A stretch of 59,146 nucleotides of DNA, the filler included, from Psammoneis japonica (Eukaryota): NCBI GenBank assembly GCA_008632985.1. It is 2 parts of 2 records of this genome, joined end to end, with 100 filler letters (N's around TTAATTAATTAA, not from the genome) between each part and the next. Parts side by side here need not be neighbours in the genome. Positions count along the whole stretch, not along the records: positions 1 to 29,381 come from QPGO01000593.1; 1 more part is not named here. One strand, written 5' to 3'. The notes beneath the pieces were generated by a model that saw only the letters and a program-made list of their open reading frames with translations, did no database searches and was not told the origin of the DNA. Both the position numbers and the translations under genes were made by a program. Shown piece after piece: positions 1,562 to 37,845 of the stretch. Within the stretch, counting starts at the first letter, position 1, and every line of letters begins with the position of its first letter.

Positions 1562-2196
1562 TGAACAAATTACCCCGCAGTCGCTTGCCAGAAAACAAAG
1601 TCACAGAAAATCGTTGCAACATTGTGCCACTGTTTCTGAGATTGTGAGTAGATCTCGGATGGAGTCTTCCCATTCCGAATCGCCAAATGCACAGTTCCAA
1701 ACACTGTTTCCGACAAAACCAGTGTTTGGGAGGAACATGACAAGCTCGTCCACGGGCACGACGTGGAATCTCGTAAGTCTTCCAGCGGCGAAGGGTGGGA
1801 GGCCAAATTGACTGCGATTTGCAACAAACGTCAGGAGCATTTGGCGAAAGATGGAGGCGTGCTGCTTGACTCGGTCGAGGAACACCGCACATTTTCGACA
1901 ACGAGGATTCAAAATTGGATTTCAATGGTGCGACCAAGCCTCCAAGACAGCTTGAAAGAAGCCAAACGCCCAGCCAAACGTGGCACTCGCACCATTCGTA
2001 GCCACTTCCGTCGGGCGCCCCCTGCTGGGGGCGCCGGGTCAGGCTAATTGCACACAATTTCTGCCGCATCCTTTTAGGGTGCACTGGAAGTGTGGGTCAG
2101 CCGGCACCGGTGTTGCTGGGCAAAGGTGCAACGGCACTTAAAAATTGGAGTTTGGTTTTTTTTTGTTTCCGACAAAACCACATGGCAAATTCTTCG
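1562..2196 (-). repeat. 5' LTR of copia element C (176 bp, interrupted by a LINE fragment)
   Basis: 1562-1721 plus 2181-2196 align to 24235-24410. Removing the 443-bp insertion and its 16-bp TSD gives 176 bp, the same length as the 3' LTR. Confidence 0.85.
1722..2164 (+). mobile_element. 5'-truncated LINE (ORF2 C-terminus, 3' UTR, oligo-T tail) with a 16-bp TSD
   Basis: Flanked by the direct repeat GTTTCCGACAAAACCA (1706-1721 and 2165-2180). The + frame reads WEEHDKLVHGHD..EEH..RIQNW..GTRTIRSHF (stop at 2047), resembling a LINE ORF2 end. Terminates in GG followed by a T run. Confidence 0.8.
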
Positions 2197-4300
2197 TCAG
2201 ATCTCCGTCCTTTGTCTTGGCACAAGAATGAGCGTGGGAAGCATGCATGGCCTTCCAATGACCGAGGGGCAATCCTGGCTTCATGGGCGCAGAGGCAGTT
2301 TCCTTCCACGACTTCAACTTGCCCTCTAAATCATTGGCAGTGAGGCAAGAGGAGACAGCAACAGGGGAATGATGCTCGAGGTGCTGAACAAAGCAAGACA
2401 TGGCCTCATTGAGTTGGGCGGTGTTGCGCTCACCATCTGAGATTAGATCGGTGAAAATCGTGTCTGCCTCACAGCCGAGGTTGACGGACAATGGAGGAAC
2501 AGCAGGAGGAGTTCCGTGTGCTTGACCGAAATGATGCTGGCTGCGGTGGCAGATGGCGGAAGCCACATCATCTGGGGCGTCCATGGCAACCCAGTCCTCA
2601 CACTCTTTGGGATTCACCACGGGGTTCCGGGGCACCTGCACGCTGTTGACGCCATTGTCACTGTCAAGTTTGCAGCACTCAATCTTGCAGAAAATTTTCT
2701 TGGTTTCTTTGGCCTTGTGGACATTTTGTGTGATCTTTGCTTTCTGTTTTGACTCCTTTGTGCCTTCCACTTCTAGTGAGGCAATCTTCTTGGCCATTTC
2801 ATTTTTGCAGTGTGCAACGCTCTCAGCAGCAACTTGTCCACATTCAGCCTGGGAAGGCAAAAGAACCTTGCAGCTTGTCTCAGACAGTGTGTGGACATGG
2901 CTGACTTGATCCAGGCGGGTGTGCATCATTGAGACCACATGGCCAAGGACATGAACTCGGTGCCACAGTTGTGACAGTTCAACCGACCACTCTGGTTCTT
3001 GGTGGATCCGACACTTCTCAGCAGCAACCAAGGAGAACTGCAACATGCCTCAATCTGACCTTTCTGCTGGTTTGTGATCAGGGGCGTCTTGATCGGGCAG
3101 TGCCTGTGAGCAAGCCAAGATTTGTCTGCTGGCCAACATCTGTCCAATGGCATCTGAGCAGGTTGCAATTTGGGGTTGTGAAGAAGACTGGATGTCCCTG
3201 CAGCTGGCCTTGGGCAAGTCAACTGTGGGGTTCCCAGACAAGGCCATCGTGTCAAAGTCCACGAAGCAAGTGCGGTGGTCTGAAGTGATGCGACAACCGA
3301 ATGCTTCACATCCGCCAAACCTGGAAGCAGACAAGGCACCGGGGGCAGCAAGCACAAAGTCCAGGCATTTCCGTCCTGGCGTGCATGTGGAAAATTCAGT
3401 GCTGCCCATCAAATCATGTGACACATCCAAAAGGGTAAAACGCTGTGCAAGGGAGGCGAGAGTGTCCGCGTCAATCAAAAAATCAGTGATGAAATCTCTG
3501 CAAATGATGACTTCACGATTTGAGTTGACCAAGAACTCTTGCAGGCAACAAGATGAATCCGTGCAAAATTCATTCCTGGGGTCAATGGACTGTCCACCGT
3601 TTTGTCGTAAAAGGGCTGCTTGTTGTGCACATGCTGCAGTCTTTCCAGGGGTCCTTTGATTTTTTGCACAAACTCTGCAGCACGAAAGGAACATGACTTG
3701 CTTGCCATTGCACCCGTCAAAGATCTGAGCAGACCAACGGCCCAGTGGATCTGATTCTTGGCTTTGGCATCATGCTGAGATGGAGTTCCCCGACAAAAGG
3801 GCCGCACCACCAGGTTTGTGCTGAGTGGCAAAGGGGGCAGAGCTGCATGAGAAGGTGCTGCGTCTGTTGGAAATTGCACTGTGTGCAGCAGATCGACACA
3901 CTGACAAAATTTCACACTGTGCAGTGTCCAGACAGACTTCCGAAATGCCCATGACGTCTGCTTGGATCTCGTTTGCCATTTGACAACATTCACGAACGTC
4001 ACCACCTCTTTTGTCCAATTTACAACCATTGGCGTTGAATGCATGCAGTCGAGTGTGATGAGGCAGCTTCGGACGAAGGTCATCACCAACAGGATCATTG
4101 GATGCCAGCCAAGAAAAATCACTGCTTCGAGTGCTTGATGCGCTGTTGCTGGTGCCACTCAGGAGTGATTGCCATTTGTCAACGCAGGATGCACCAATGG
4201 AGTCACTGCTCATGTTGGGTCCACGCTCCTCCAAGGAGAAGACTGGGGCTTGGAGCTCTGACTGTCGGGTGATGCTGCGCTGCAGGAGAATTTGCGGCAC
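2197..4300 (-). pseudogene. LINE ORF2 N-terminal part (apurinic endonuclease and linker), degenerate
   Basis: Motifs VGDDL..TRLHAFNANG, ADVMGISEV, KPGG, EVIICRDF, GRKCLDFVL, SDHRTCFVDF, HFGQAHGTP and KSWKETAS..GLPLGHWKA, spread over frameshifted ORFs 3770..4300, 3050..3694 and 2138..3046. Confidence 0.85.
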
Positions 4301-4415
4301 TTGGCAGTGCGGTGGAACAAATGGAAGATGGCGAGGGAATCATTTGGAGGAGATGAGATGTCTGGTGGACGCCTGATGGTCTGATGGGGTGGAGGCGGTG
4401 AAGTCCAACCCCTGT

Positions 4416-6577
4416 CTAAAAATCCTTCTCCTTGTCACATGAGTCAGCCAAGCGATCTGTTGTGTCCATGTGATTTGGGCGTTTCCTTGCTGATGTTTGG
4501 ACTGGTTGATTCGCTTGGAGCAGTTGCACCATCTGATTCATCTGGTCCTGCATGCCCCCAAGTTGTTGAGAGTGCTGAGCCTGTGACACAGCGATGTCCT
4601 GCACAGGTTGTTGCATGAATGCATTGTCAATTGCCTCAACATCTCGCAAGTGTTGTGAACGTAGATCCTCCAAGGCTTTCTCAGCTTTCTCTTGCATCTG
4701 AGACATGTTGTGTTTGACATCAGCCAGCTGCACGGAGGTGATGGAATTGGCGGTCGACTGTGCAGCCTGTGCATGTGAGCGCGGAGGAGAATTCATGCCA
4801 GGGCAACTGGGACACACGGGTGGCAAGGGTGAGTTCTGGGAGCAGTGGGTGCAGATGTGGGGAGGAACAGCTGAGCCTGGTTGAGCACCACGGCCTGGGA
4901 AACCTTGACCTCTGCCATTGCAACTGTGGCCCGCCAATTTCAATGGTGGTGGTTGTTGGTGATTTCCTGAAGCTTGGTTGTCTGTCAAAGGCAAAACGTT
5001 GGAAAAGGTGAGAGATTCCAGGCTGTGGATGCCAGCCGACACAATGGACTTGCCAGTGTCCGACATCTCCTCTGGCATGCCAGAGACTTGAGGAGGATTC
5101 CTGAAGAGTGGGGTGGGGCAGGCTTCTTTCAAAATTGTTGGGACAAGGTTCATGATGCACGCAGAAATGGCAGCCCTGGCAGACTTGAACTCGAGAGGGT
5201 TGACGAGGACATTGTGTTGGCCGGCAGTGGCACTTGATGGGAAGATTGCTTTCATGTCTTTCAATGCCTTGAGTTGATTTTCAAAGCAGAGCATGATGTC
5301 CGGAGCAGTGCTCGACAGTGGAACAAAGAAAGCATCTTCATTCCAATGAGCCTGGATTTTGACCACATCACAAAAGGTGAGGGGGGAGATGTGCCGGGTC
5401 TTGGCCATGACGATGTGTGTCGGGAACTTTTCTGATGCACAAAGCAAGGCCTTTCCAGCCAAGCGACAGTCCTCCATCAATGCCTCAGTGGTGAAGGCAG
5501 CAGCATGGAGGGGAGGAGCAAGACCTTTGTCATCGGCATGAATTGAGATGGGCGCCAACCTGAACTTTGGTGTTTTGGTCTGGCATTTCCCAAGATCGCA
5601 GAGGAACATTTTTGCAGCTTCGTTGATGGGAGCATGTTTGGTCGTGGCAGCAATGTGGCATGCTGGGGAGGCCGTTTTGACATCTGATTCATTCCCAAAA
5701 TGACGTTTCATGCCCATGTTGTTAGAATCCAAAATGCTCTGGATGTGAGGATGAGAGCGAGTGTCACGCAGAGGAATTTTTGCAAAGATCCGGTGGCATG
5801 AGCGGTGAGTCAGAGGACACTTTTCACCTTTGCAAGTCGTTGAAATGACACAATGTTGTTCGTGTTGAAGAGAAGACACCCATTTGGCCATGCTGGGCAG
5901 CGCAAGAAGCAGTTTCCTGCCATGATGATTGTCTGGCTTAGAGTGCCACCTGTGCTGCTTCAAATGATGTTGAAAAGAGCAAGCTCTGTTGCCACATGGT
6001 TGGCACTGTGGTTGACAGCCACCCTGTTGAATCTGGCGGCAGTGTTGACATTGATGAGGCTTGGAACATGTGCAAAGCTGCGCAAGACCAGCATGCTCGA
6101 ACAACATGTTGGTGGCCATGGCGTGCATGGGCCAGCTGTTTTGCCACCTGCGCCATCCAAAAAAGCATGGTCTGAAAAAGGGCCTCAATTTTTTGCGTGA
6201 TGATGGCACGGTCTTCTTGCCCATGTGATGCAAGGAGCTGTGCTCTGTCACAGCAAGGGTGAGGATTCAAGCACTGGATCAAGCTCTTCTCAGACAACCA
6301 ATGCAAACAAACAAAAGGAAAAGGGTGTGCCAGAAGAAACTCAAAAAGCAGAGCAGCTGGGCAGCACAAGAAGCACATGCCTGCCCTGGGGATTGACTGG
6401 CTGAGAAAGCCACCTTCGCTGCTTCAAATGATGATGAAAAGAGCAGGCACTGTTGCCGCCTGGTTGGCACTGTGGTTGACAGCCACAACAGCCATCCTGT
6501 TGAATCTGGTGGCAGTGTTGACATTGACGATGCTTGGAGCGTGCTCCAATGATGCACTGGCAACCACGGCGTGCATG
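4416..6577 (-). pseudogene. LINE ORF1-like region (611-aa ORF 4416..6251), 5' end cut by copia A
   Basis: Long ORF directly upstream of the endonuclease ORF, with a Pro-rich and Gln-rich coiled-coil-like C-terminus. 6418-6577 repeats ~5953-6129. Confidence 0.6.
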
Positions 6578-6759
6578 CGAGTAAATCTGGATGGAGGGCT
6601 GTGCTGCAATTGGTGATTGGTTGAGACACATGGATCGAGTGGTGCTGCAGCAACACACTCACAATCTAATCAGGTTCAGGCTTGCATTGACAGTGTCACT
6701 GCTTTCCATTTAGACTCAAGGTGTCGTGCTTGTTCTTTCGTTGCATCGAGATTTATTCG
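6578..6759 (+). repeat. 5' LTR of copy A (182 bp, CGAGTAAAT...ATTTATTCG)
   Basis: Aligns with 13865-14014 and 15089-15270. Imperfect 9-bp terminal inverted repeat. Followed by a PBS at 6760-6773. Confidence 0.9.
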
Positions 6760-7219
6760 CTTTGTCAGAGCCAAGACGAAAAAGACAGAGCGAAATGGTT
6801 TCGAACACAATTCGTCATGGACGATTGTTTGTTGTGTTGTTTGCATGGAACGTGCAGCTGCAGAAACGGTGCTGAACTGTGCGCGATGCGTCAGAATTCG
6901 GATTGATGCGCACGATGATGTGTCTCGTGTCACTTGTTGTGACATCCACAAAAACAGCTTGCAATGGTGACACTCTCAAAGACAGTCACTGTCCTCACAC
7001 ATGTGACGGGTGTGAAGGGACTGCGGCATTGGGCGACATGCCCGAGCGTGTGCTCAACAATGTCGGTTGACATGAACGACACAGGACTGATCACCCTGAC
7101 GTCGGGTGGCTGTGTGAACCCGTCATCACAACACAGAGAAAGTGCAGCCATCATGACCATGCAGACTCACAGCTGTGTGTTCCCGGTGCGGGACCTTCAC
7201 ACCCTTTCTCTGTTGTGGG

Positions 7220-8735
7220 ATGGCAGCAGCGGCAGCACCAGCAGCAGCACTTGTGGCGTCAGCCGTGGCAGCTGACGTTGGTGCAGTTTTACAAGTTTGT
7301 GGCATTGCTGGCCAGAACGCAAGGGCAAGGTTGGTCTTCTGTGAAGGGTTCACAACTTTGGAAAACATCGCAGTGATGGAGAGTGATCACGATGTGGAAG
7401 ACATGGCGCATGGGGCATCTCGTCGCACGGTGGCCGACGGACGTGTGACTCTTGGGACTGTTCAGATCAAGAACTTGCAGGCGCTAGTGTGGTGGTGCCA
7501 GGATTTGCTCAAACCGAATCAGCCATTGGTTGCAGCAGACTTAAATGCAGCAGCTGTGGCTGCGGCCCGGAATGGCAGGCGTGTCGAAAAGGAGCGCATG
7601 GATTCGGACACGTTGGCAAGCAGTCTCATGAAGTTCAAGCCCGATGACTTCGATGTGTGCGAAGATGCTTTCCTGAATCTCTTGGCACAGAAATTTGGCG
7701 TGTTGAAAGAACCCCTTCGCTGTGTCGTAAGGACAATGCCAGCTCCGGCTGCATTCACGGATGCTCAACAACAGCGTGTGCACCAGATGCCATTGAATGG
7801 CGCCGCACATGACGAGGACAACCACAGCGTTTGCCGTGTGTTGAAGGAACACTTGGTCGACACAGCAGGGTGGGCATGGATCGAACCGTTTGACGCGACA
7901 GAAGACGGACGTGGAGCATTCAACGCATGGGTTGACCATTGCAGTGGACAGGGCGAGTTGAGCAAGTGCATCCATCTGGCTGCGGCAACTGTTGAAACCT
8001 TGTTTTGTGAAAAGGAAGAAACTTGCCAGTGCTTCAGCCACTTTGAACAAATCACCGGACGACTGCAAATCTGAACGACAGAAAGTTGACATTCTTCTAA
8101 AAGGGATCCGAACGGATGACACTCGTCTCATTGCAGCAACGGCTGTCATTGGCAGTCAGCACCCTCGTGACTTTGCGGGGGCATGTGCTCATTTCTCATC
8201 CGAAGTCTCTCGTTTGCATGCAGGTGCTCAGTTGGAAGCCCGGCGTTGGTCGAAGCGCAAGATTTCTGAAATGAGCCGTGGTTGCGGCAGTGGCCACGGT
8301 TTTTATCGAGGTCGCGGTCGCGGAGGAAGATTTGGACGTGGGGGTGGACGCAGACGTGGTGGTGGCCGTCAAGGCAGAGGTGGCGACCACACTGCAATGA
8401 TCAATGGAGTCAATGCATCCGACCCTGCAAGGAGCTTCAGTGCTCTAGAATGGGAAAAGTCACAGCACAATGGAGGCATGAGCTGCGTGTTCCAAGCTGG
8501 CGAACGAATGGGTCATGGACGCGGTGGTGGCCGTGGGTCTCCCGCAGGTCAACAAGGACGCGATGGGGGCAGCAGGCATGTGGCTGAAGCCCAAGTCTGT
8601 CAAGATGGCCAAGGCCAAACCCAACAACAGGATCAGGAGCAAAGGAGCAGCAGGCGTGGTCGCGGCGCTGACCGGGATCGCGGTGGATGCAATGGATGCG
8701 CCTTCGGTCGGGGAGCCTGCAATGGCTCCACCTGA
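7220..8735 (+). pseudogene. gag: copia gag, copy A (frameshifted near 8020)
   Basis: ORFs 7175..8074 and 7992..8735: EPLRCVVR, GWAWIEPF, DGRGAFNAW, KVDILLKGI, and an RGG-rich C-terminus. Paralogous to 15703-17213. Confidence 0.85.
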
Positions 8736-8744
8736 CTCCTTGGG

Positions 8745-11700
8745 GTGGCAACAGCCACTGGAGCATTGGCGCATTTGGCACACTTGTCTTTTTTGCTTGT
8801 GTTGCCCTTCTTGCTGTTGACCAAACCCCACCCAACATCTCATTTCAAAGGAAAGGCGACAAAGAGGCACATTGCCGTGACATCAAAGCGTGTGATCCGA
8901 TCGACGAGTTTTGCACAGATGACAAATTTGACGACACCTGGGTTTGTTGCTCGAAATGAATGTGACACTCACGCAGACACTTGTTGCGCTGGGGCGAACT
9001 GGAAGCTCATGGAGATGACAAATGAAGTGTGCGAGGTGCACCCATTGTCATGTGTCCCACCCAAAGTGCGAGCTGCGTGAATGGATGAGATGCCGTCATG
9101 CTGCCTGACGGTTGCCGGCAAGCCTCTTTGCCATCTCGCTCGCTCAGTGGGCACTTCAATGTCTTGACCATTGAATCAACTAGCACATCGCCTGCGTGGA
9201 CATGTCACCACACGCGACATCCTCCTTGCTGGTGACTTCAATGTTCTTCGTTCAACGGAGATCGACTCAGATTTCTTCGACACTCCTCGTTCCTTTGTCA
9301 AGTCGGTTCCCCTGAGATTCCTGATTCCCAGGTCAGAGAATCGGTCTGTGCACCGCTCCTTCTCATCCCTTCGAACAGAAAGTCTCTTTCGAGTTTCGAA
9401 CCTTCGACCTCTTTGACCTCACCGCCAATCGGAACTTTCAGCTGCGAAGACCTCGTCTTGCATCCGCTGTGTCAAGTGGACATGCAGGTGTCTCACCATG
9501 TCATGTATCCTGCCCAAAGTGCGAGCTGCATAAATGGATGAGATGCCGTCACACTGCCTGACGGTTGCCGGCAAGCCTCTTTGCCATCTCGCTCGCTCAG
9601 TGGGCACTTTAATGTCTCAACCATTGAATCAACTAGCACATCGCCTACGTGGACACATCACCACACGCGACAACCCATTTCTGGACTCTTGTGAGCCGAT
9701 CAAACAGATTCCTGTGGCACGTTGTTGCACCGCATGGACAGATCCGGAAACGACTCGTGAACATTCGCTGGTTGGTGATCAAATGCTCTGGTTTGGGACC
9801 AACATGTGACACTCACTTTTGAATCCCAACCAACTCCGTGCGCACAACATGCCCGCACATGACAACCCTTGCGACACCCGAAACGGATTTGGCATTGAAG
9901 CTGACGAAGCTTTCATCCCTTTCAATGCCACGGGGACAATTGTGTCTTTCAAGTCTCGTGTTCCGACGGATTGGGAAGCACAGAACTTGCCGGTTGTGCT
10001 GTTGACAGGCAACGCATGGGATCCAGCACAGATGGACATGGGCTTGCCAGAGTGCGCTAGAGAGCAGGCGGAGATGCGCGCCATTCAATCATCGACCTCT
10101 GGCATGCGACAAGAACAGGTCTCGGAATTGAGGAGCGAGAAGGCAAAGTCCCAAGCAGCACACTGGGGCGAGGTCGAAATGCAGCTGTCGTCCATGTCTC
10201 CCATCTGTCAACTTCAATCGTTTTGCGACAGGCTTGTCAGCTCAGTGAACGTGGCTTGTGCATGTCGCGATGACATGGACAAGAGGCAGAGGGCAGTCAA
10301 AGATTTGTGCAGCAAGGATCGGCACTCGAAGGTTGACGCTGAAGAGCTGGCCCGAAAATGGAGTGTCGGTTTAGAAACGGCAAGAGACACTCTCAATGTA
10401 ACAACTCAGCGCGGTGTGCAAACGGCGACCCAGCCGATGTCACGAAGAGTGAGGGTGGATCATCTTGACTTGCATCGGAAGCATCTGAAAGGAACATGGT
10501 TTGTGGACACTTTGACATCCAAGGTGAAGTCTTCACTCGGCAACACATGTGCCAATGTTTGTGCTCAGGGCAAATTCGTGAAGGTTGTGCCGATGACCGC
10601 CAGGTCGGAGGCAGGTTTGTCTCTTGTTGAATTCACAGACAACGTGGGTGCACCAGAATGTCTTGTGTCGGACGGGGCAGGAGAGTTCACAGGAAGGAGT
10701 GCCGAATTTGTGAGACATGCACGACGCATGAGAGTGCAATTGAGAACATCAGAGCAGGGTCGGAAGAACCAGAACCAGGCAGCGGAGCGTGAAATTGGTT
10801 TCTTGGCCAAACGTTGGCGGCTGCAGATGACAAAGAAGAAGGTGCCAAAGCGATTGTGGGATTTTGGTCTTGTTTGCGAGTCGGAATTAGTGTCGCGCAT
10901 GGCAAGAGGCAGGGACAAGAGGGCTGGATGTGAAGAGGTCACTGGGCAGACACCAGAGACAGGCCAGTGTTTGGATTTTGGTTTCTACGACATGGCATGG
11001 TGGTGGGACAGGCCCAACAAGCCGAGTGCAACTGACGATCCTCGAAGGCTTGGACGGTGGCTTGGCATCTCACACAAAGTTGGCTCGGACATGTGCCATT
11101 GGATTGTTGCGGAAAGTGGGGAGATTGTCTCCAAAACATCGGTCGAGCACGTGACACAGGCTGACATGGCACAACCGGACATTCGTGTTGAGGTTGACAA
11201 CTTTAACGAGCAGCTGGAGAAGCGATTGGATGATGCTGACTTTGTCTTAAAAGGTGATGAAGCTGTGCCCGCATTCGTGGTGGACGATCTTGCAATTGAC
11301 GGCAACCTTGGTGTGGAATGTGAGGGCGGCATCACGCCAGAGGACGAGGAGTGTGGCAACATGCTGTTGCCTGACGAGTGACCAGACGACGATGACGAGC
11401 AGGCAATCGATCAACACCTGGGAATGGAACTTGTGTTTGACATCGGAGCCAACGGCGAGCGACGTGGTGTTGTAACGAAACGTGCAAGAGGACAGGATGG
11501 GCGTCCAATTGGGACTCGGCATCAAAACCCATTGTTTGACACTCGCAAAAACGAAGTGGAACATGCCGATGGAACCACAGATGAGTGTGCAGCCAATGTC
11601 ATTGCCAAGAACATGTTTGCTCAGGTCAACAGCGAGGGCAACCAGCATTCCATCTCACACGAGATGCAGGACCACGAGAGGAGTGACGATGCGGTGTCGA

Positions 11701-13673
11701 TTGCTGACGGCACCATGCAAACCGCTGACAGGAAGGAGAAGAAGAAGATCACAACAAAAGGATGGAAGTCATTGGGCGGATGGAAGGATGGCAGCTCATC
11801 TTGGGTCAAACTCAAAGATCTAAAGGACTCCAACCCCATTGAAGTTGCTGAGCATGCTGTTGCAAACAGGTTGACGGAAGAACCTGCTTTTGCTTTGTGG
11901 GTCACACATGTCCTGCGTGAATGGAACCGCATTGTGTCCAAGGTCAAGAAGAAGCACTGGCGCACGACTCACAAGTTTGGGACCCGATTGCCCAAGTCCA
12001 CGGAGGATGCTTTGCGGGTTGATCAGGAAACGGGGACAGATTGTTGGGCTTGTGCAATCAATGAGGAGATGGCAAAGGTGAAGGTGGCATGGCGCGAGCA
12101 CGAAGCTGAAACCCCTCAAGTCGTCCAGGAAGGCAAGAGCACAACTTTGCGTGGTTGTCAGGAGATCAGGTGCCACATGGCATTTGGCATTAAAATGGAT
12201 TTCACCAGAAAGGCAAGGTTTGTAGCTGGCAGACACACGACAGAGGCCCTGGCATCGATCGCTTGCTCTGGCATGGTTTCCAGAGACAGTGCGCGACTTG
12301 GATTCTTGTCAGCAGCCTTGAATGGTGCCGACATTACGGCGATTGATCTGGAGAATGCTTGTCTCAATGCACCGTGTGCAGAAAAGATGTGGTTTGAAGG
12401 TGGAAAGGAATGTGGCGGGTACGAAGGAAAGGTGCTTGTTGTTGCTCGGGCGTTGCATGGCTCAAAGAGCTTGGGACACTCTTGGAGGTCTGCACTGTCA
12501 TCGATCTTACGTGACTCAGGCTTCGAATCGACGAGAGCGGACCCAGATGTCCACTTGCGTGCGGCGACTCGTGAGGATGGGCACGAGCATTGTGAAATGC
12601 TTTTGGTTTGCGTCGATGACATGCTGGTCATTTCCCATCAAGGGAAGTCCATTGTTGCTGCAATGGGTGAACACTGTGCCGTGAAGCCCGGCAGCAAAGG
12701 AGAACCAGAAGTTTGTCTTGGAGCTAATGTTGAGAAGGTTCAGACTCAGGATGGGCGCACAATCTGGGCGAGTTCACCGAGGTCACATGTCAAATCGGCG
12801 ATTGAGACTGTGGAAGGCCCATTGGATGAAGACGGCAATGGAGAGGTTCTGAAGAACAGTGCAAAGGATCCACCACCCCCAAAGCACAAACCGGAACTGG
12901 ACGTGACGGACGAGTTGGGCCCCGACTTGGTGGACAGGCATTTGCAGCTGACAGGGATTTGTCGTTGGGCGATCGAGTTGCGTCGCATCGATGTCTTGCA
13001 TGAGGTTTCAATCCCATCTCAACATCAAGCCAATCCAAGGAAAGGACATCTTGAGGCATTGCATCATGCATTTGCGCACATGAAGAAACACCAGAACATC
13101 GGATGCATCAGATTTGATCCAAAGGAACTGGTGATTGATGAATCTATTTTCAATTCGAACGCAGACTGGACCAAGTTTTACGGGGACGTCGAGGAGGAAC
13201 TGCCGCCACGGGCACCGAAGCCTCGTGGCAATCTGGCAAACATCCACGCATTTGTTGATGCTAACCATGCAGGGAATGTTGTCACTCGCAGGTCGCATGG
13301 CAGGACTCTGACATTCGTCAATGATGTGCCAGTGGTTTGGTTCAGCAAGCGGCAGAACACGGTGGAATCGGCAACGTTTGGAAGTGAATTGGTTGTGGTG
13401 CGGATTTGCAAGGAATTGATTGTTGCTTTGCGTCACAAGCTTCGCATGTTTGGGGTTCCCCTTGAAGGACCGGCAAGTGTCTTTTGTGACAATCGCGGTG
13501 TTGCAAAGAATGCAAGTGCACCCGAGTCGGTTTTGCACAAGAAGCACAATGCCATCAACTGCCATGTTGTGCGAGAAGTGGTCGCAGCGGGAATCATTCG
13601 TGTTGGCAAGGAGGATGTGGAAACGAACTTGGCCGATCCACTTGCAAAGGTGGTCACAGGAGAGCGGCGATGA
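8745..13673 (+). pseudogene. pol: copia pol (PR-INT-RT-RNase H), copy A, with stops and a TRIM insertion
   Basis: ECDTHADTCCAG; LVSDGAGEF and QNQAAEREIG; TTKGW..WVKLKDLKDSNP; RKARFVAG, DLENACLNA, LVCVDD; FVDANHAG, SKRQNTVES, FCDN, NLAD. Confidence 0.95.
9046..9672 (-). mobile_element. TRIM-like non-autonomous LTR element nested in copia A pol
   Basis: Two 174-bp TG...CA repeats (9046-9219, 9499-9672) around a 279-bp interior. Minus-strand PBS TGGTGAGACACC and PPT AAGGAGGA. 6-bp TSD ACCCAT (9040-9045, 9673-9678). Absent from copy B at ~17520. Confidence 0.9.
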
Positions 13674-13864
13674 AAGCTTTGCTTGTGCATTTTTTGGCAA
13701 TGTCCCGACACCAAGGCCAGGCACCTGTGGCTCGTGCCCACGCATCGTGGCCTCCCAAGCCAGTGTGTCTGGTGGTTTAATTTGGGTTCTTGTGGTTTGC
13801 CTCTCTGTGAGAGGATGTCACATGTTTGGACAAATCGGCGCTGTCATTGCCGTTTTGCAGGGAC

Positions 13865-14014
13865 CGAGTAAATCTGGATGGAGGGCCATGTCACAATTGG
13901 TGATTGGTTGAGACACATGGATCCAATGGTGCTGCAATGACATGCTCACAATCTAATCAGGTTCAGGTTCACAAGGTGTCATGCTTGTTCTTTCGTTGTA
14001 TCGAGATTTGTTCG
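13865..14014 (+). repeat. 3' LTR of copy A (about 32-bp internal deletion)
   Basis: Follows the PPT. Aligns to 6578-6759. Ends GATTTGTTCG. Confidence 0.85.
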
Positions 14015-14328
14015 TTCCAACTTTGCAATGTTCCAAGATGACTTGCTTCAGTGGAATGATCAGATCCAGTCAGAAGAAAAGAGTCACTCTGTTGCTGTGG
14101 TTTCAAGTGTTTTGAAGGTTGTGAATCAATTTGCTGCTGCTGTTCATGACACCATTCCCAGCTGTTCCCGAGGGGCGTCATTGTTTGGCAGTGACACCCA
14201 CCTTGGCCAACCACAACACATTCCTGCCGCGCCACTGGTGCACTGAGGGTGTGGGTCAGCTTGTTGCCAAAATTGCAGGGTGGAAGTGTGGCAGCACTTT
14301 AAACATGGAATTTTGGTTTTGTTTTTTT
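14015..14328 (+). mobile_element. Fragment ending in a LINE-type 3' terminal motif and T-rich tail
   Basis: CTGCCGC..GGTGCACTG..GTGTGGGTCAGC..GCACTTTAAA..GGTTTTGTTTTTT resembles 2060-2164. The 5' boundary is uncertain. Confidence 0.5.
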
Positions 14329-14640
14329 GCGTGGCAGCGCAGCATTGCCAACACGCACCCGGGAAGCATGGCCACAGGAGGGCGTGGCTCTCATGTCTCA
14401 GGCAATCTAGAAGGATGCTGCGAGAGCAAAGCACTCCAACCTGTTTGTCTGGCCCACAACAGTGGCATGATTCCACACAATGACATCACTCGTGCACAGC
14501 ACATGATGGCATGATTTGCACAATCCACAATGCGAGTGCACGATTGATTGGCGCGATCCAAAATGCAAGTGAGTGGGAATTTGACAAGATTCCCTGTTCT
14601 CGCGATTCCATTTCTCTGTGCATGAACTGGCTCACAATTT

Positions 14641-15088
14641 GGCAGAATGCGGTGGAATTGGCAATGTTTGGAAGTGAATTGGTTGTGATGCGGATTTGCA
14701 AGGAATTGATTGTTGCTTTGCGTCACAAGCTTCGCATGTTTGGGGTTCCCCTTGAAGGACCGGCAAGTGTCTTTTGTGACAATCGCGGTGTTGCAAAGGA
14801 TGCAAGTGCACCCGAGTCGGTTTTGCACAAGAAGCACAATGCCATCAACTGCCATGTTGTGCGAGAAGTGGTTGCAGTGGGAATCATTCGTGTTGGCAAG
14901 GAGGATGCGGAAACAAACTTGGCCGATCTACTTGCGAAGGTGGTCACAGGAGAGTGGCGATGGAAGCTTTGCTTGTGCATTTTTTGGCAATGTCCCGACA
15001 ACAAGGCCAGACACCTGTGGCTCGCGTCCACGCATCGTGGCCTCCCAAGCCAGCACATCTGGTGGTTTAATTTGGGTTCTTGTGGTTT
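14641..15088 (+). mobile_element. 3' fragment (RNase H end and 3' UTR) of a third A/B-family copia copy, into which copy B is inserted
   Basis: Aligns to 13351-13798 (FGSELV..LRHKLRMFGVP..FCDN..NLAD) and stops abruptly at the LTR starting at 15089. Confidence 0.85.
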
Positions 15089-15702
15089 CGAGTAAATCTG
15101 GATGGAGGGCCATGTTGCAATTGGTGATTGGTTGAGACATGTGGATCGAGTGGTGCTGCAGCAATGTGCTCACAATCCAATCAGGTTTGGGCTCGCATTG
15201 ACAGTGTCACTGCTTTCTGTTTGGACTTAAGGTGTCGTGCTTGTTCTTTCATTGCATTGAGATTTGTTTGCTTCATCAGAGCCAGGACGAAAAAGACAGA
15301 GCGAAATGGTTTTGAATGCAATTTGTCATGGACGATTGTTTGTTGTGTTGTTTGCATGGAATGTGCAGCTGTAGAAACGGCACTGAACTGTGCGCGATGC
15401 GTCAGAATTCGGATTGATGCGCACGATGATGCGTCTCGTGTCGCTTGCCATGATGTCCACAAAACAGCTTGCAATGGCAACACTCGCAAAGACAGTCGCT
15501 GTCCTCACACATGTGACGGGTGTGAAGAAACTGCTGCATTGGGCGACATGCCCGAGCGTGTGCTCAATGATGTCGGTTGACATGAATGACACAGGACTGA
15601 TCACCCTGACGTCGGGTGGCTGTGTGAACCCGTTGTCACAACACAGAGAAAGTGCAGCCATCATGACCATGCGGGACCTTTGTGCCCTTTCTCCATTGTG
15701 GG

Positions 15703-17213
15703 ATGGCAGCAGCAGCAGCACCAGCAGCAGCACTTGCGGCGTCAGCCGCGGCAGCTGACGTTGACGCAGTTTTACAAGTTTGTGGTGTTGCTGACCAGAA
15801 CGCAAGGGCGAGGTTGGTCTTCTGTGAAGGGTCCACGACTTTGGAAAACATCGCAGTGATGGAGAGTGATCACGATGTGGAATGCATGGCGCAGAGGGCG
15901 TCTCGTCACACAGTGGCCTACGGACGTGTGACTCTTGGGACTGTTCAGATCAAGAACTTGCAGGCACTAGCATGGTGGTGCCAGGATTTGCTCAAACGGA
16001 GTCAGCCATTGGTTGCGGCAGACTTTAATGCAGCAGCCATGGCTGCAGCCCGGGATGGCAGGCGTGTCGAAAAGGAGCGCACGGATTCGGATGCGTCGGC
16101 AAGCGGTCTCGTAAAGTTCAAGCCCGATGACTTCGATGTGTGCGAAGATGCTTTCCTGAATCTCTTGGCACAGAAATTTGGCGTGTTGAAAGAACCCCTT
16201 TGCCATGTCGCAAGCACAATGCCAGCTCCAGCTGCATTCACGGATGCTCAACAACAGCGCATGTGCCAGATGCCATTGAATGGCGCCACATGTGATGAGG
16301 ACAACCGCAGCGTTCACCGTGTGTTGAAGGAACACTTGGTCGACACGGCAGGATGGGCATGGATCGAACCGTTTGACGTGACAGAAGACGGACGTGGAGC
16401 ATTCAACGCATGGGTTGACCACTGCAATGGACAGGGCGAGTTGAGCAAGTGCATCCATCTGGCTGTGGCAACTGTTTCTTCGAAAAGTTCAATGAGAAAC
16501 TTGCCAGTGCTTTCGCCACTTTGAACAAATCACTGGACAACCGCAAATCTGAACGACAGAAAGTTGACATTCTTCTAAAAGGGATCCGAGTGGATGACAC
16601 TCGTCTCATTGCAGCAACGGCTGTCATTGGCAGTCAGCACCCTCGTGACTTCACGGGGGCATGTGCTTGTTTCTCATCCGAAGTCTCTCGTTTGCATGCA
16701 GGTGCTCAGTTGGAAGCCCGGCGTTGCTCGAAGCGCAAGATTTCTGAAATGAGCCGTGGTGGCGGCAGTGGCCACGGTTGTTGTTGAGGTTGCGGTCACG
16801 GAGGAAGATTTGGGCGTGGGGGTGGACGTGGACGTGGTGGTGGCCGTCAAGGTGGAGGTGGCGACCACACTACGATGATCAATGGAGTCGATGTGTCCGA
16901 CCCTGCAAGGAGCTTTGGCGCTCAAGAATGGGAAAAGTTGCGGCACAATGGGGGCATGAGCTGCGTGTTCCAAGCTCGCGAACGAATGGGTCATGGATGC
17001 GGTGGTGGCCGTGGGTCTCCCGCAGGTCAACAAGGACGCGATGGGGGTGGCAGGCATGCAGCTGAAGCCCAAGTCTGTCAAGATGGCCAGGGCCAAACCC
17101 AACAACAGGATCAGGAGCAAAGGAGCAGCAGGCGTGGTCGCGGCACTGACCAGGATCGCGGTGGATGCAATGGACGCGCCTTTGGTCGGGGAGCCCACAA
17201 TGGTTCCACCTGA
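15703..17213 (+). pseudogene. gag: copia gag, copy B
   Basis: ORFs 15682..16524, 16449..16787 and 16875..17213 are colinear with gag of copy A. Confidence 0.85.
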
Positions 17214-17222
17214 CTCCTTGGG

Positions 17223-20200
17223 GTGGCAACAGCTGCTGGAGCATTGGCGCATTTGGTGCACTTGTCATTTTTGCTTGTGTCGCTCTTCTTGCTGTTGACC
17301 AAACCCCACCCAACATCTTGTTTCAAAGGAAAGGCGACAAAGAGGCACATTGCCGTGACATCAAAACGTGTGATCCGTTCGACGAGTTCTGCACAGATGA
17401 CAAATTTGACGACACCTGGGTTTGTCGCTCGAAATGAATGTGATGCTCACGCGGACACTTGCTGCGCTGGGGTGAGCTGGAAGCTCATGGAGATGACAAA
17501 TGAAGTGTGCGAGGTACGTCCATTTCTGGACTCTTGTGAGCTGATCAAACAGATTCCTGTGGCACGTTGTTGCACCACATGGACAGATCCAGAAACGACT
17601 CGTGAACATTTGCTGGTTGGTGATCAAATGCTCTGGTTTGGGACCGACATGGAACACTCACTTTTGAATCCCAACCAACTCCGTGCGCACAACACACCCA
17701 CACACGACAACCCTTGCGACACCTGAAACGGATTTGGCACTGAAGCTGACAAAGCTTTCATCCCTTTCAATGCCACGGGGACAATTGTGTCTTTCAAGTC
17801 TCGTGTTCCAACGGATTGGGAAGCACAGAACTTGCCGGTTGTGCTGTTGACAGGTGACGCATGGGATCCAGCACAGACAGACATGGGCTTGCCGGAGCAC
17901 ACCAGAGAGCAGGCGGAGATGTGTGCTGTTCGATCATTGACCTCTGGCATGCAACAAGAACAGGTCTCGGAATTAAGGAGCGAGAAGGCAAAGTCCCAAG
18001 CAGCACGCTGGGGCGAGGTCGAAATGCAACTGTCGTCCATGTCTCCCATCTGTCAACTTCATTCGTTTTGCGACAGGCTTGTCAGCTCAGTGAACATGGC
18101 TTGTGCATGTCGCGACGACGTGGACAAGAGGCAGAGGGCAGTCAAAGATTTGTGCAGCAAGGATCGGCACTCGAAGGTTGACGCTGAAGAGCTGGCCCAA
18201 AAATGGAGTGTCGGTTTAGAAACAGCAAAAGATGCTCTCAATGCAGCAACTCAGCGCGGTGTGCGAACGGCGACCCAGTCGATGTCACGAAGAGTGAGGG
18301 TGGATCATCTTGACTTGCATCGGAAGCGTCTGAAAGGAACATGGTTTGTGGACACTTTGATGTCCAAGGTGAAGTCTTCACTCAGTGACACGTGTGCCAA
18401 TGTTTGTGCTCAGGGCAAATTCGTGAAGGTTGTGCCGATGACCGCCAGGTCGGAGGCAGGTTTGTCTCTTGTTGAATTCACAGACAATGTGGGTGCACCA
18501 GAATGTCTTGTGTCGGACGGGGCAGGAGAGTTCACAGGAAGGAGCACCGAATTTGTGAGACACACACGACGCATGAGAGTGCAATTGAGAACATCAGAGC
18601 AGGGTCGGAAGAACCAGAACCAGGCAGCGGAGCACGAAATTGGTTTCTTGGCCAAACGTTGGCGGCTGCGGATGACGAAGAAGAAGGCACCAAAGCGATT
18701 GTGGGATTTTGGTCTTGTTTGCGAGTCGGAATTAGTGTCGCGCATGGCAAGAGGCAGGGACAAGAGGGCTGGATGTGAAGAGGTCACTGGGCAGACACCA
18801 GAGATGGGCAAGCGTTTGGATTTTGGTTTCTGCGACATGGTGTGGTGGCGGGACAGGCCCAACAAGCCAAGTGCAACTGACGATCCTCGAAGGCTTGGAC
18901 GGTGGCTTGGTGTCTCACACAAAGTTGGCTCGGACATGTGCCATTGGATCATTGCGGAAAGCGGGAAGATTGTCTCCAAAACATCGGTCGAGCATGTGAC
19001 ACAGGCTGATGTGGCACAACCGGACATTCGCGTTGAGGTCGACAACTTTAATGAGCAGCTGGAGAAGCGATTGGACGATGCTGACTTTGTCTTAAAAGGC
19101 GATGAAGCTGTGCCCGCATTCGTGTTGGACAATCTTGCAATTGACGGCAACCTCGGTGTGGAACATGAGGGCGGCATCACGCCAGAGGATGAGGAATGTG
19201 GCAACATGCTGTCACCCGACAAGCGACCAGACAACGACGATGAGCGTTCAATCGATCAATGCCTGGGAATGGAGCTCATGTTTGACATCGGAACCAACGG
19301 CGAGCGACGTGGTGTTGCAACGAAATGTGCAAGAGGACAGGATGGGCGTCCAATTGGGGCTCGGCATCAAAACCCATTGTTTGACACTCGCGAGTGCAAA
19401 GTGGAACACACCGATGGAACCACAGACAAGCACACAGCCAATGTTGTTGCTGAGAACATGTTTGCTCAGGTCGACAGCGAGGGCAACCAGCACTCCATCT
19501 CACACGAGATGCAGGGCCACGAGAGGAGTGACGATGCGGTGTCGATTGCTGACGGCACCGCACGAACCGCTGACGGGAAGGAGAAGAAGAAGATCACAAC
19601 AAAAGGATGGAAGTTGTTGGTCAGATGGAAGGATGGCAGCTCATCTTGGGTCAAACTCAAAGATCTAAAGGACTCCAACCCCATTGAAGTTGCTGAGCAT
19701 GCTGTTGCGAACAGGTTGATGGAAGAGCCTGCTTTTGCTTGGTGGGTCACACATGTCCTGCGCAAACGGAATCGCATTGTGTCCAAGGTCAAGAAGAAGT
19801 GCTGGCGCATGACTCACAAGTTTGGGATCCGATTGCCCAAGTCCACGGAGGATGCTTTGTGAATTGATCAGGAAATGGGGACAGATTGTTGGGCTCGTGC
19901 AATCAACAAGGAGATGGCAAAGGCAAAGGTGGCATGGCACGAGCACGAAGCTGAAACCCCTCAAGTCGTCCGGGAAGGCAAGAGTGCAACTTTGCGTGGT
20001 TGTCAGGAGATCAGGTGCCACATGGTGTTTGACATCAAAATGGATTTCACCAGAAAGGCAAGGTTTGCAGCTGGCGGACACACAACAGAGGCCCTGGCAT
20101 CGATCACTTGCTCCAGCGTGGTTTCCAGAGACAGTGTGCGACTTGGATTCTTGTCAGCAGCCTTGAATGGTGTCGACATTACGGCGATTGATCTGGAGAA

Positions 20201-21446
20201 TGCTTGTCTCAATGCACCGTGCGCAGAAAAGATGTGGTTTGGAGGCGGAAAGGAATGCGGCGAGTGCGAAGGAAAGGCACTTGTTGTTGCTCGGGCGTTG
20301 TGTGGCTTAAAGAGCTCGGGATGCTCTTGGAGGTCTGCACTGTCATCGGTCTTACGTGACCCAGGCTTCGAATCGACGAGAGCGGACCCAGATGTCTGCT
20401 TGCATGCGGCGACTCGTGAGGATGGGCACGAGCATTGTGAAATGCTTTTGGTTCATGTCGACGATGCACCAATCATTTCCCATCAAGGGAAATCTGTTGT
20501 CACTGCAATGGGTGAACACCACACCGTGAAGCCCGGCAGCGAAGGAGAACCAGAAGTTCATCTTGGAGCTGATGTTGAGAAGGATCAGACTCAGGATGGG
20601 TGCACAATCTGGGCAAGTTCACTGAGGTCACATGTCAAATCGGCGATTGAGACTGTGGAAGGCCTGTTGGATGAAGACGGCAATGGAGAGGTTCTGAAGA
20701 ACAGTGCAAAGGATCCACTGCCCCCAAAGTGCAAACCGGAGCTGGACGTGACGGACGAGTTAGGCCCCAACTTGGTGGACAGGCATTTGCAGCTGACAGG
20801 GATTTGTCATTGGGCGATCGAGTTGGGTCGTGTCGACATCTTGCATGAGGTTTCAATCATGTCTCAATGTCAAGCTAATCTGAGGAAAGGACATCTTGAG
20901 GCATTGTGTCATGTGTTTGCGTGTGTGAAGAAACACCAGAACGTCGGACGCATCGGATTTGATCCAAAGGAACCGGTGAATGATGAATCTATTTTCAATT
21001 CAAATGCAGACTGGACTGAGTTTTACGGGGATGTCGAGGAGGAACTGCCGCCACGAGCACCGAAGCCTCGTGGTGATCCAGCAAACATCCGCGCATTTGT
21101 TGATGCCAACCATGCAGGGAATGTTGTCACTCGCAGGTCGCACAGCGGGATTCTGACATTCGTCAACAACGCACCAGTGGTGTGGTTCAGCAAGCGGCAG
21201 AACACAGTGGAATCGGCAATGTTTGGAAGTGAATTGGCTGCAATGCGGATTTGCAAAGAATTGATTGTTGCTTTGCGTTGCAAGCTTCGCATGTTTGGGG
21301 TTCCCCTTGAAGGACCGGCAAGCATCTTTTGTGACAATCGCAGTGTTGCAAAGAATGCAAGTGCACCCGAGTCAGTTTTGCACAAGAAGCACAATGCCAT
21401 CAATTGCCATGTTGTGCAAGAAGCGGTTGCAGCGGGAATTGTTCGT
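17223..21446 (+). pseudogene. pol: copia pol, copy B
   Basis: ORFs 17223..17726, 17787..19862 and 19875..21470: DAHADT, integrase core, LVHVDD, FVDANHAG. Confidence 0.95.
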
Positions 21447-21494
21447 GGGCAAAGGTGCAACAGCACTTAAAATTGGGGTTTGGTTTTTTTTTTT
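21447..21494 (+). mobile_element. 48-bp LINE 3' end with oligo-T tail
   Basis: GGGCAAAGGTGCAACAGCACTTAAAATTGGGGTTTGG followed by a T run; nearly identical to 2118-2164. Confidence 0.75.
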
Positions 21495-21863
21495 GTCGTG
21501 CAGCATCATGCCAACAAGGCAATCTCGCTTGATGCCACCGCACATGATCTTAGTCGCAAGATCGGCTGGATTGCATTCCGACATAATGTGTCCTGCAAGG
21601 GACTCACCCACAGCTGCCGACTCCCCAATGGCATGGCAGCATGTGGAGTTAGACTTCTTCTTCAAAGTCGACTCTGGGCTTTGGGTGTTGTGGACAACTG
21701 ACATGTTGTCCCCACAAATGCACGATGGTCCGCTGAGCGGGACTCCCATCATCCTGAGTTTGTGCCTCAGGCCTCGCAAAGCTTCCATGCCCTGCTTCAC
21801 AGCCACAAACTCAGCACCAAAGACTGAAGTCTTGATGGCACTCTGGCGATTGGAGAACCAGGC
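21495..21863 (-). mobile_element. RNase H fragment of a C-family copia element
   Basis: Aligns to ~24672-25041 (FGAEFVAVKQGMEALRGLRHKLRMMGVP..GDNMSV..NPADLATK). Confidence 0.85.
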
Positions 21864-21949
21864 TGACCCAATCTCCGGATGCTCTCCTCCACATCAGAAG
21901 GAAATTCCATGCCCCTGAGGTGCAAAGTGTGAGCTGCGCTCCATTGGAC

Positions 21950-24234: not shown

Positions 24235-24410
24235 TGAACAAATTACCCCGCAGTCGCTTGCCAGAGAGCAAAGTCATAGAAAATTGTTGCAACATTGTGC
24301 TGCTGTTTCTAAGATTGTGAGCAGATCTCGGATGGAGTCTTCCCGTTCTGAATCGCCAAATGCACAGTTCTGAACACCATTTCCGATAAAACCACATGGC
24401 AAATTCTTCA
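24235..24410 (-). repeat. 3' LTR of copia element C (176 bp), preceded by PPT GAGGGGAC
   Basis: Aligns to the split LTR at 1562-2196 and lies about 240 bp after the pol stop at 24652. Confidence 0.9.
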
Positions 24411-37841: not shown

Positions 37842-37845
37842 GGTC

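Follow-up and report, generated by a model that had tools for sequence, protein, structure and literature searches.

The element at positions 9046-9672 is most probably a 627-bp non-coding LTR element of the TRIM type that lies inside a copia-like retrotransposon, and its two LTRs have been driven apart by a context-specific A:T>G:C process that acts on repeats after their integration and converts TpA to TpG or CpA. Together, the TRIM insertion and the post-integration conversion are, with high confidence, the best explanation of the sequence analysed here, a stretch of 59,146 nucleotides (filler included) from Psammoneis japonica (GenBank assembly GCA_008632985.1; hereafter the window). The changes run from TA to TG or CA, postdate integration, are specific to this dinucleotide, keep to particular regions of the window and carry no strand bias.

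A short LTR element inserted into a copia-like retrotransposon

That the element is a real insertion is evident from its target duplication and from an empty site in the paralogous copy. The same six bases flank it on either side, the paralogous copia copy carries the site uninterrupted (Table 1), and three contigs from a public sequencing run join position 9039 to 9673, skipping exactly 633 bases. Both LTRs measure 174 bp and have TG...CA ends, which places them within the short-repeat range of TRIM elements (~100-250 bp), and they enclose a short non-coding core of 279 bp, with a polypurine-tract-like run beside the putative 3′ LTR, as found in TRIMs. In its short LTRs, short non-coding core, TG...CA ends, target duplication and candidate primer-binding and polypurine motifs adjoining the LTRs, the element thus resembles a TRIM; it is unlike one in that its target duplication is 6 bp long. 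The usual target duplication of such elements is 5 bp. Within the window, we detected neither a tRNA gene to match the primer-binding-site-like stretch nor a third copy of the element. Blastn against a phage collection gave no match for it, and comparison with the surrounding copia element revealed no similarity.

Table 1. Features of the window, with positions counted along the whole stretch (o/e, observed/expected)
Feature	Position	Strand	Observations
TA-depleted domain	1-32000		TA o/e 0.02-0.19 per kb; 38500-47000 and 53500-59146 alike
Copia-like retrotransposon copy A, host of the insertion	6578-13602	+	RT ORF 11424-13673; RVT_2 match, E = 9.9e-8; homologs up to 66% identity
Left target-site duplication, ACCCAT	9040-9045		Identical to 9673-9678; single in the paralogous empty site and in the skipping contigs
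LTR (3′ LTR if the element is minus-strand)	9046-9219	-	TG...CA ends; 1 TA left, at 9181; ~13/14 inferred ancestral TA converted
Internal region, 279 bp	9220-9498	-	0 TA; too short for reverse transcriptase coding
Polypurine-tract-like run (putative)	9220-9230	-	Minus strand reads AGCAAGGAGGA; adjoins LTR; 9/11 purines; function suggested by sequence
Primer-binding-site-like stretch (putative)	9481-9498	-	Minus strand: TGG at start, immediately past LTR
LTR (5′ LTR in minus orientation)	9499-9672	-	5 TA left: 9506, 9531, 9610, 9634, 9646; ~9/14 inferred ancestral TA converted
Right target-site duplication, ACCCAT	9673-9678		Identical to left copy
Paralogous copia copy B	15089-21447	+	~92% identical to copy A; empty site ~17515-17523
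Near-normal TA island, fumarylacetoacetase/GST-like host gene	33000-38000		TA o/e 0.39-0.70; duplicated at 48000-53000

Divergence of the two LTRs

Ungapped alignment of 9046-9219 with 9499-9672 spans 174 positions with 13 mismatches, no gaps and 92.5% identity. All 13 mismatches are transitions and they fall at nine dinucleotide sites, exactly as the initial annotation had read them by eye, including the absence of indels. Its division of these sites is reproduced by the same alignment: at four (9054, 9079, 9157 and 9194, by left-LTR position), TG or CA in the left LTR stands opposite TA in the right, four are reciprocal, with TG in one LTR facing CA in the other (9058/59, 9099/100, 9165/66 and 9203/04), and one pairs CG with CA (9077). 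Every mismatch lies in a pyrimidine-purine step—steps that span 102 of the 174 positions—which would happen by chance with a probability of ~1e-3, and the probability of obtaining transitions only is ~5e-3 at a 2:1 transition bias. The annotation had further held that conversion is far faster than background mutation; in line with this, the ~124 LTR positions that are neither TA-type nor CpG contain no difference at all. Ten CpGs are intact in both LTRs.

How did the two LTRs come to differ? They were identical when the element integrated and would now be caught midway through conversion, the left having lost ~13/14 and the right ~9/14 of their ancestral TAs (difference not significant; Fisher p = 0.16). 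The reciprocal sites would then represent TAs that were converted on one strand in the left LTR and on the other strand in the right. Doubly converted sites split into four discordant and five concordant ones, a ratio that fits independent conversion after integration. In the right LTR, retained and converted sites are interleaved and do not form a conversion tract.

Other copies of the family in a public sequencing run

Further copies of the element are represented in a public run (X1/X2). Of the 40 variant places listed for them, 22 have TA in these copies against TG or CA in the window, and one has the opposite. Relative to the window, the other copies in run X1 show C>T 32 times, G>A 23 times, T>C nine times and A>G 13 times. 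Among the 40 variant places listed, they have TA at three of the four reciprocal LTR sites and at three of the four sites that are TA only in the right LTR (9079, 9157 and 9194); two of the eight TA-type sites, 9054 and 9058/59, lie outside these 40 places, beyond which there were 63 more. In the internal region, other copies show TA at 9329, 9478, 9481, 9485 and 9490. At the LTR site that pairs CG with CA, the sole other copy covering it reads CA.

TA depletion across the repeats of the window

The signature extends well beyond the TRIM element. Over the whole window, TA o/e is 0.15, with TG at 1.52, CA at 1.59 and CG at 0.73. TA o/e is at or below 0.2 in 49 of 59 1-kb bins and ranges from 0.00 to 0.12 in most bins, and 40 of the 59 pass the cut-offs of a preprint on Bigelowiella natans (TA <= 0.43 and CA+TG >= 1.52). 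Across bins, TA o/e is correlated negatively with CA+TG (Spearman -0.72) and positively with CG (+0.77); CpG o/e in the depleted domain ranges from 0.2 to 0.9. No aligned repeat pair has TA opposite CG, which indicates that TG and CA are end states.

The only parts of the window with normal TA are two host-gene islands, namely the fumarylacetoacetase/GST-like gene, whose best named relatives are diatoms, and its duplicate. TA o/e in the flanks of this island is 0.02-0.17. In the window, 32 ORFs reach 200 aa or more; a retroelement domain was recognized in only three ORFs of the depleted domain, and 15 further ORFs from depleted parts gave nothing above Pfam curated cut-offs. In a 15-kb duplicate at 99% identity, 179 sites are TA in both copies and two differ; since the TAs have been kept, duplication alone is seemingly no trigger.

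Young duplicates also bear on the reliability of the sequence itself. If a modified base at TpA of silenced DNA were misread in sequencing or assembly, TG and CA would be miscalls, and a regional pattern tied strictly to one dinucleotide is indeed what base-modification miscalls look like. Random miscalls, however, predict that young duplicates differ at about half of their former TA sites, and we find no reciprocal site in 7474 bp of 99.4% identity and four in 3794 bp of 99.0%; copies that are 92% identical, by contrast, do differ at about half of these sites. Moreover, 31-letter words of run X1 yielded 26 contigs with >=99% identity to the window, although X1 and X2 stem from one sample that is possibly the source of the assembly and are not independent evidence for the window sequence. 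The same run also contains TA-bearing copies of the element's family, and host genes on the same contig are normal in TA. An artefact of this kind is thus hardly credible.

Ancestral states in the copia open reading frame

The reverse transcriptase ORF of copia copy A offers a reading of the ancestral state through its codons. Tyr accounts for two of its 749 residues (0.3%), as against 2.75-4.64% in all 120 homologs listed. At the 20 conserved Tyr columns (defined as >=70% Tyr in 40 homologs), copy A has His (CAY) at ten, Cys (TGY) at eight, and Tyr and Asn at one each. Copies A and B differ in the choice between Cys and His at 10 of the 18 columns converted in both, which argues that reciprocal TG/CA sites derive from ancestral TA through separate conversions in the two copies. 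Sense-strand outcomes at the Tyr columns number 19 TG and 18 CA. The ORF has 47 reciprocal TG/CA sites; TA is the favoured ancestral state at 26 of them and CG at seven, with 14 undecided. Conserved Tyr codons, reciprocal ORF sites and other family copies provide three independent polarisations in support of the post-integration TpA conversion that the annotation had proposed. The comparison of LTR pairs across dinucleotide contexts, which it had suggested as a genome-wide check, was carried out here on those pairs of repeats that the window contains.

Polarisation of single TA differences in the ORF gave nine changes from TG or CA to TA (six TG>TA, three CA>TA) and four from TA to TG or CA, so that in this saturated pair a TA present in one copy is not always ancestral. 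The polarised spectrum contains three true transversions, and homology ends at 13602. When metagenomes were scanned with the copia protein, two related loci emerged among 56 candidate stretches, both with normal TA o/e (0.62 and 0.89).

Might the TAs, then, be the derived state? Under a RIP-like scenario, the TAs of the right LTR would have been created by C>T at CpA/TpG; this would suit the confinement of all four TA-only sites to one LTR, as well as the new TAs that do arise in the copia ORF. RIP, however, raises TA and lowers CA and TG, and the repeats of RIP-affected fungi are TpA-rich and AT-rich, whereas here TA is nearly gone, CA and TG reach 1.5-1.6 times their expectation and the repeats have a GC content of ~0.52. 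Nor does it explain the four reciprocal LTR sites, or agree with the TA that other family copies carry at 9079, 9157 and 9194. We give this reading very little credence.

The first reading of the pattern was methyl-CpG decay, in which the variable sites start out as CG in the newly integrated element and deamination of 5-methylcytosine on either strand yields TG or CA. Like TpA conversion, such decay generates TG and CA after integration and inflates LTR divergence, and several observations point its way: CG against TG or CA is the commonest single-site difference in the copia pair (57 sites in 2430 bp, 104 in 3930 bp), CpG is reduced in the depleted domain, seven of the reciprocal ORF sites favour CG, and one LTR site pairs CG with CA. 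Unlike TpA conversion, it starts from CG, and it explains seven reciprocal ORF sites versus 26; of the nine LTR sites, it accounts for one at most. Four LTR sites would need decay in both LTRs, yet ten CpGs stand intact in both; homogeneous decay predicts ~9 reciprocal sites in the 3930-bp pair as opposed to the 70 observed; and the clearest reciprocal sites are conserved Tyr codons, which are possible only from TA. Methyl-CpG decay also leaves the TA o/e of the window unexplained, and at three of the four reciprocal LTR sites the other family copies have TA rather than CG. The TA deficit, the Tyr codons, the TA in other copies and the ratio of reciprocal sites led to its rejection; it is refuted as the main cause and very unlikely to account for the pattern. 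Nevertheless, methyl-CpG decay appears to co-occur here with TA conversion.

Finally, the differences could have arisen before, or apart from, this locus—through RNA editing, reverse-transcription errors, or gene conversion or recombination with family members. ADAR-type RNA editing favours a U preceding the edited A, according to the Discussion of the B. natans preprint (bioRxiv 10.64898/2026.01.13.699255), and the many diverged family copies are potential donors for gene conversion. Changes that preceded integration, however, would be shared by two LTRs made from one template rather than discordant, and the strand symmetry of the outcomes at the Tyr columns is unlike single-strand RNA editing. 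The target duplication is intact. Transversions that distinguish family members (e.g. 9080 and 9528) are the same in both LTRs, and the interleaving of retained and converted sites in the right LTR argues against a conversion tract. Of the readings considered, these origins are the least probable.

Discussion

What kind of process might leave such a signature? We propose that TpA is rewritten to TpG or CpA throughout the repeat-rich part of the window, with the integrated double-stranded copy as substrate, both strands being struck equally and at a rate far above that of other substitutions. The product—TpG or CpA—would be set by which strand's adenine is altered. Older elements have in this way been almost emptied of TA, with the adjacent host-gene island left untouched. 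The leading candidate for the underlying chemistry is adenine-to-inosine deamination at TpA in DNA, as proposed for B. natans; a mispairing modified thymine would alternatively leave an identical signature. Since TA loss tracks CpG loss, the process may be guided to silenced or methylated chromatin.

Within the literature searched, one other publication describes the same signature, a 2026 preprint on hypermutation at TpA in viral DNA integrated into the genome of the chlorarachniophyte B. natans (Mettrop et al., bioRxiv 10.64898/2026.01.13.699255, 2026). In that preprint, a mutation-accumulation study found changes of TpA>TpG/CpA only, arising de novo; the targets are giant-virus and virophage insertions, which are partly depleted (Rho TpA 0.45), and an ADAT2-like protein is put forward as the candidate enzyme. 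The two systems are alike in the exclusive conversion of TpA to TpG or CpA, the limitation to regions, the coupling of TpA loss to CpA+TpG gain, a rate far over background, and an abundance of reverse-transcriptase and endonuclease domains among low-TpA coding sequences. The features by which the B. natans system is recognized recur in the window: polarity from TA to TG or CA, clustered TpA depletion with CpA+TpG enrichment, and a spared host-gene island. The present case is unlike B. natans in that LTR retrotransposons are the targets, depletion is near-total and the host gene is diatom-like; in the preprint text, diatoms, LTRs and retrotransposons have zero occurrences each. A report of such a process in diatoms was not encountered in the literature searched, which included passages of PMC2806351.

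RIP converts C to T at CpA and thereby produces TpA-rich, AT-rich DNA (PMC2621366, abstract). Both RIP and TpA conversion are regional, context-specific transition storms that disable integrated mobile DNA, spare neighbouring genes and distort LTR dating, but they are opposite in direction and product, as TpA is here destroyed and GC goes up. The chances seem about even that diatoms, or a close relative, possess a heritable DNA-editing defence, a mirror image of RIP in which an enzyme would convert adenine at TpA, on both strands of silenced, integrated mobile DNA, until it is TA-free, either shared or convergent with the chlorarachniophyte system and maybe SAR-wide. If enzymatic and directed at transposons, it would join RIP as a second type of genome defence by mutation in eukaryotes; if true, it would be present in two algal lineages that are far apart, of which one is ecologically dominant.

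TpA conversion also has practical consequences. The initial annotation had warned that LTR-divergence dating would overestimate ages, and the data support this: the LTR pair diverges by 7.5% over all sites as against 0/~124 at other positions, and the copia pair by 7.8% overall as against ~1.7%. Such editing would erase Tyr codons together with TAA and TAG stops. In TA-free DNA, gene finders will accordingly report long false ORFs, because TGA is the only stop remaining, and homology searches become less sensitive, since codons for Tyr, Ile and Leu are altered. LTR pairs of this kind, in turn, represent a built-in clock of the process that can be read without experiment.

There may also be a second, weaker activity at CpA, given that the LTR site pairing CG with CA is CA in another copy and that 16 polarised changes in the copia ORF are CA/TG>CG.

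A minor observation concerns the sequence context of the TAs that survive. Because many of them are newly made, we do not read this context as enzyme specificity. An A precedes 6% of surviving TAs, as compared to 34% in the islands, and 39 of 178 surviving TAs lie within TTAA, as compared to 13 of 329 in the islands.

The LTR pair of a nested element

An initial annotation of the 627-bp element had described 13 mismatches between its LTRs, at nine dinucleotides, all transitions and without indels. Ungapped alignment of 9046-9219 with 9499-9672 bears this out, with 13 mismatches over 174 positions, 13 of 13 being transitions, and no gaps; the site classes match the earlier list exactly (Table). 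Pyrimidine-purine steps, which make up 102 of the 174 positions, contain all 13 mismatches.

Table. Dinucleotide pairings in the LTR pair and in the pair of copia copies (3930 bp aligned).
Comparison	Pairing	Sites	Positions
LTR pair	TA in right LTR, TG or CA in left	4	9054, 9079, 9157, 9194
LTR pair	reciprocal TG vs CA	4	9058/59, 9099/100, 9165/66, 9203/04
LTR pair	CG vs CA	1	9077
Copia pair	CG/CG	152	
Copia pair	CG vs TG or CA	104	
Copia pair	reciprocal TG vs CA	70	
Copia pair	TA vs TG or CA	13	
Copia pair	TA/TA	9	
Copia pair	TA vs CG	0	

The direct repeat and the LTR-type insertion are genuine: a repeat search of the window pairs 9046-9222 with 9499-9675 at 92% identity, the LTRs start with TG and end with CA, and ACCCAT flanks the element on both sides (9040-9045 and 9673-9678). 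The element is nested inside a copia-like retrotransposon (copy A), whose segments 6578-9037 and 9675-13602 match 15089-17515 and 17520-21447 of a paralog (copy B) at 91-92% identity. The uninterrupted target site is present in that paralog, and three contigs from a public sequencing run join 9039 to 9673, lacking 633 bases that correspond to the element and one ACCCAT copy. On the minus strand, a PBS-like TGG adjoins one LTR and a PPT-like purine run, AGCAAGGAGGA, the other; because of where these lie relative to the LTRs, the element is probably oriented on that strand, making the window's right LTR the 5′ LTR. The window contains no tRNA gene with which the PBS-like stretch could be matched. 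By size (627 bp with a 279-bp core), the element fits the TRIM type.

Could TG and CA at these sites be sequencing miscalls rather than mutations? We reject this, as random miscalls would also hit young copies, yet duplicates at 99.4% and 99.0% identity carry 0 reciprocal sites in 7474 bp and 4 in 3794 bp, respectively, while copies at 92% identity are discordant at about half of their former TA sites. Moreover, run X1 contains converted copies of the family alongside TA-bearing ones, and TA content is normal in the host genes of the same contig.

Direction of change in the LTRs

Other copies of the element family were compared over 8800-9900 at 80% likeness in the public sequencing runs X1-X3, which share a single sample and possibly underlie the assembly. 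In X1, 173 contigs match, of which 26 reach 99% likeness or more; with the window as reference, the other copies show 32 C>T and 23 G>A differences, versus 9 T>C and 13 A>G. Among the 40 variants listed (besides 63 further ones), window TG or CA faces TA in other copies in 22, the reverse occurring in 1 of 40. Within that list, other copies carry TA at three of the four reciprocal sites (9100 with 9552; 9166 with 9618; 9204) and at three of the four sites with TA in the right LTR only (9079, 9157, 9194). A further five positions, at which the two LTRs agree on TG or CA (9083, 9114, 9119, 9130, 9184), are also TA in other copies; the ancestral LTR thus had ~14 TA. The left LTR retains one of these and the right five, a difference in conversion that is not significant (p = 0.16); the internal region retains none of at least five. 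Doubly converted LTR sites are discordant in four cases and concordant in five, matching the prediction of independent post-integration conversion. Since the single other-copy contig spanning 9077 carries CA, the CG/CA site may reflect A>G at CpA in the left LTR, not CpG decay.

Direction of change in the copia pair

Methyl-CpG decay in both copies was considered as a source of the reciprocal sites. As the main source, it is contradicted by the window's composition and by number, homogeneous CpG decay computed from the copia-pair counts predicting ~9 such sites against the 70 seen.

The copia ORF (11424-13673) encodes an RVT_2 domain and matches 402 homologs at E <= 1e-5, with identities of up to 66%; those that are named belong to the diatom Fragilaria crotonensis. 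Tyrosine makes up 2.75-4.64% of residues in all of the 120 homologs listed out of these 402, versus 2 of 749 in the window ORF. When aligned with 40 homologs, the ORF shows 20 columns in which at least 70% of residues are Tyr; there, copy A has Tyr at 1, His (CAY) at 10, Cys (TGY) at 8 and Asn at 1. The paralog likewise carries Cys or His, differing from copy A at 10 of the 18 columns converted in both, and sense-strand outcomes summed over both copies are 19 TG and 18 CA. Together, this indicates that TA was ancestral, that conversion proceeded independently in each copy after their separation, and that both strands were hit equally. The ORF has 47 reciprocal sites, of which 26 point to TA as the ancestral state and 7 to CG, with 14 undecided; CpG decay is therefore real, but a minor contributor.

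Polarised single-copy changes between 11424-13602 and 19269-21447 comprise 10 CA>CG, 6 TG>CG, 13 CG>CA and 12 CG>TG. The changes towards CG may point to A>G activity also acting, less strongly, at CpA, or else to imperfect polarisation.

Rate and timing

The LTRs differ at 12 or 13 TA-type positions and at none of ~124 others. In the copia pair, the 308 mismatched bases divide into 153 TA-type, 104 CpG-type and ~51 other, and masking the first two classes lowers divergence from 7.8% to ~1.7%. These figures, with the polarisation, support the earlier interpretation that TA is converted to TG or CA after integration and far faster than background, inflating LTR dating. The process is close to saturation here: the maximum-likelihood conversion fraction is 0.90 for copia pairs and 0.76 for the LTRs, the element being less converted than its host copia, as expected of a later arrival while the process continued. 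Four TA versus TG/CA sites in 174 bp of LTR are more than the 0.68 predicted from the saturated copia pair (P = 0.005). The LTR pair is direct evidence that conversion follows integration.

Relation to a known process

In mutation-accumulation lines of Bigelowiella natans, new mutations in two regions of integrated viral DNA were almost exclusively TpA>TpG/CpA, arising at ~6e-7 per site per generation, and reverse-transcriptase and endonuclease domains are enriched among its low-TpA coding sequences (bioRxiv 10.64898/2026.01.13.699255). The available text of that preprint contains no occurrence of diatoms, LTRs or retrotransposons, and no report of TpA conversion in diatoms was found in the literature searched, including passages of PMC2806351, a classic paper on diatom retrotransposons. 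Our finding is a new instance of this very recently described process in another lineage and target class, differing from B. natans in that LTR retrotransposons are hit, conversion is near saturation and an LTR pair documents post-integration change. An ADAT2-like adenine deaminase is the agent proposed for B. natans (bioRxiv 10.64898/2026.01.13.699255); here, both the enzyme and the targeting signal of TA conversion remain putative.

Window composition and host-gene islands

Across the window, TA observed/expected (o/e) is 0.15 (533 TA in 59,146 bp), with TG at 1.52, CA at 1.59 and CG at 0.73. TA o/e is at most 0.2 in 49 of 59 1-kb bins, near-normal values (0.39-0.71) occurring only at 33-38 kb and its duplicate, 48-53 kb. 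TA and CpG o/e correlate across bins (rho = +0.77), and the TA-erasing domain therefore coincides with the CpG-decaying one, presumably methylated and silenced. Among the TA-free segments surveyed (2001-6000, 22001-25000, 41001-45000, 56001-59146, and both copia copies), CpG o/e is 0.21-0.53 in some and 0.7-0.9 in others, including the copia copies; the two losses therefore overlap, unequally advanced.

Island ORFs carry an FAA_hydrolase domain (E = 2.8e-11); among named proteins, those most similar to them are the fumarylacetoacetase-GST fusions of three raphid diatoms, Fistulifera solaris, Seminavis robusta and Amphora coffeiformis (55-61% identity), with a GST-like ORF next in the order of the fusions. 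On this homology, the host is probably a diatom or close relative. At 35948-36802 (minus strand), two contiguous fumarylacetoacetase-homologous ORFs share one frame, separated by a single stop codon (36329-36331), and may be a pseudogene or reflect an unrecognised intron or sequence error; the GST-like ORF (35438-35755, minus strand) follows, as in diatom FAH-GST fusions.

The islands belong to a 15-kb unit present twice in tandem (29482-44499 and 44500-59146, the second extending past the window end) at ~99% identity, which also contains TA-free repeats. The duplicates share 179 TA sites and differ at 2; duplication has therefore not triggered island TA loss.

GC skew is positive throughout the nested retroelements of 4001-24000 (0.10-0.19) and flat beyond; TA conversion being strand-symmetric, this skew should have another cause. 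The window holds 32 ORFs of 200 aa or longer, many of which overlap another on the opposite strand (e.g., 13008-13745, minus, within 11424-13673, plus). With TA near-absent, TAA and TAG are impossible and stops are TGA only, so that long ORFs there are no evidence of genes. Finally, a ~857-bp unit is tandemly repeated at 42271-43987 and 56925-58635 with ~90% identity, CpG o/e of 0.2-0.3 and almost no TA, its two copies differing by 10 reciprocal TG/CA sites.
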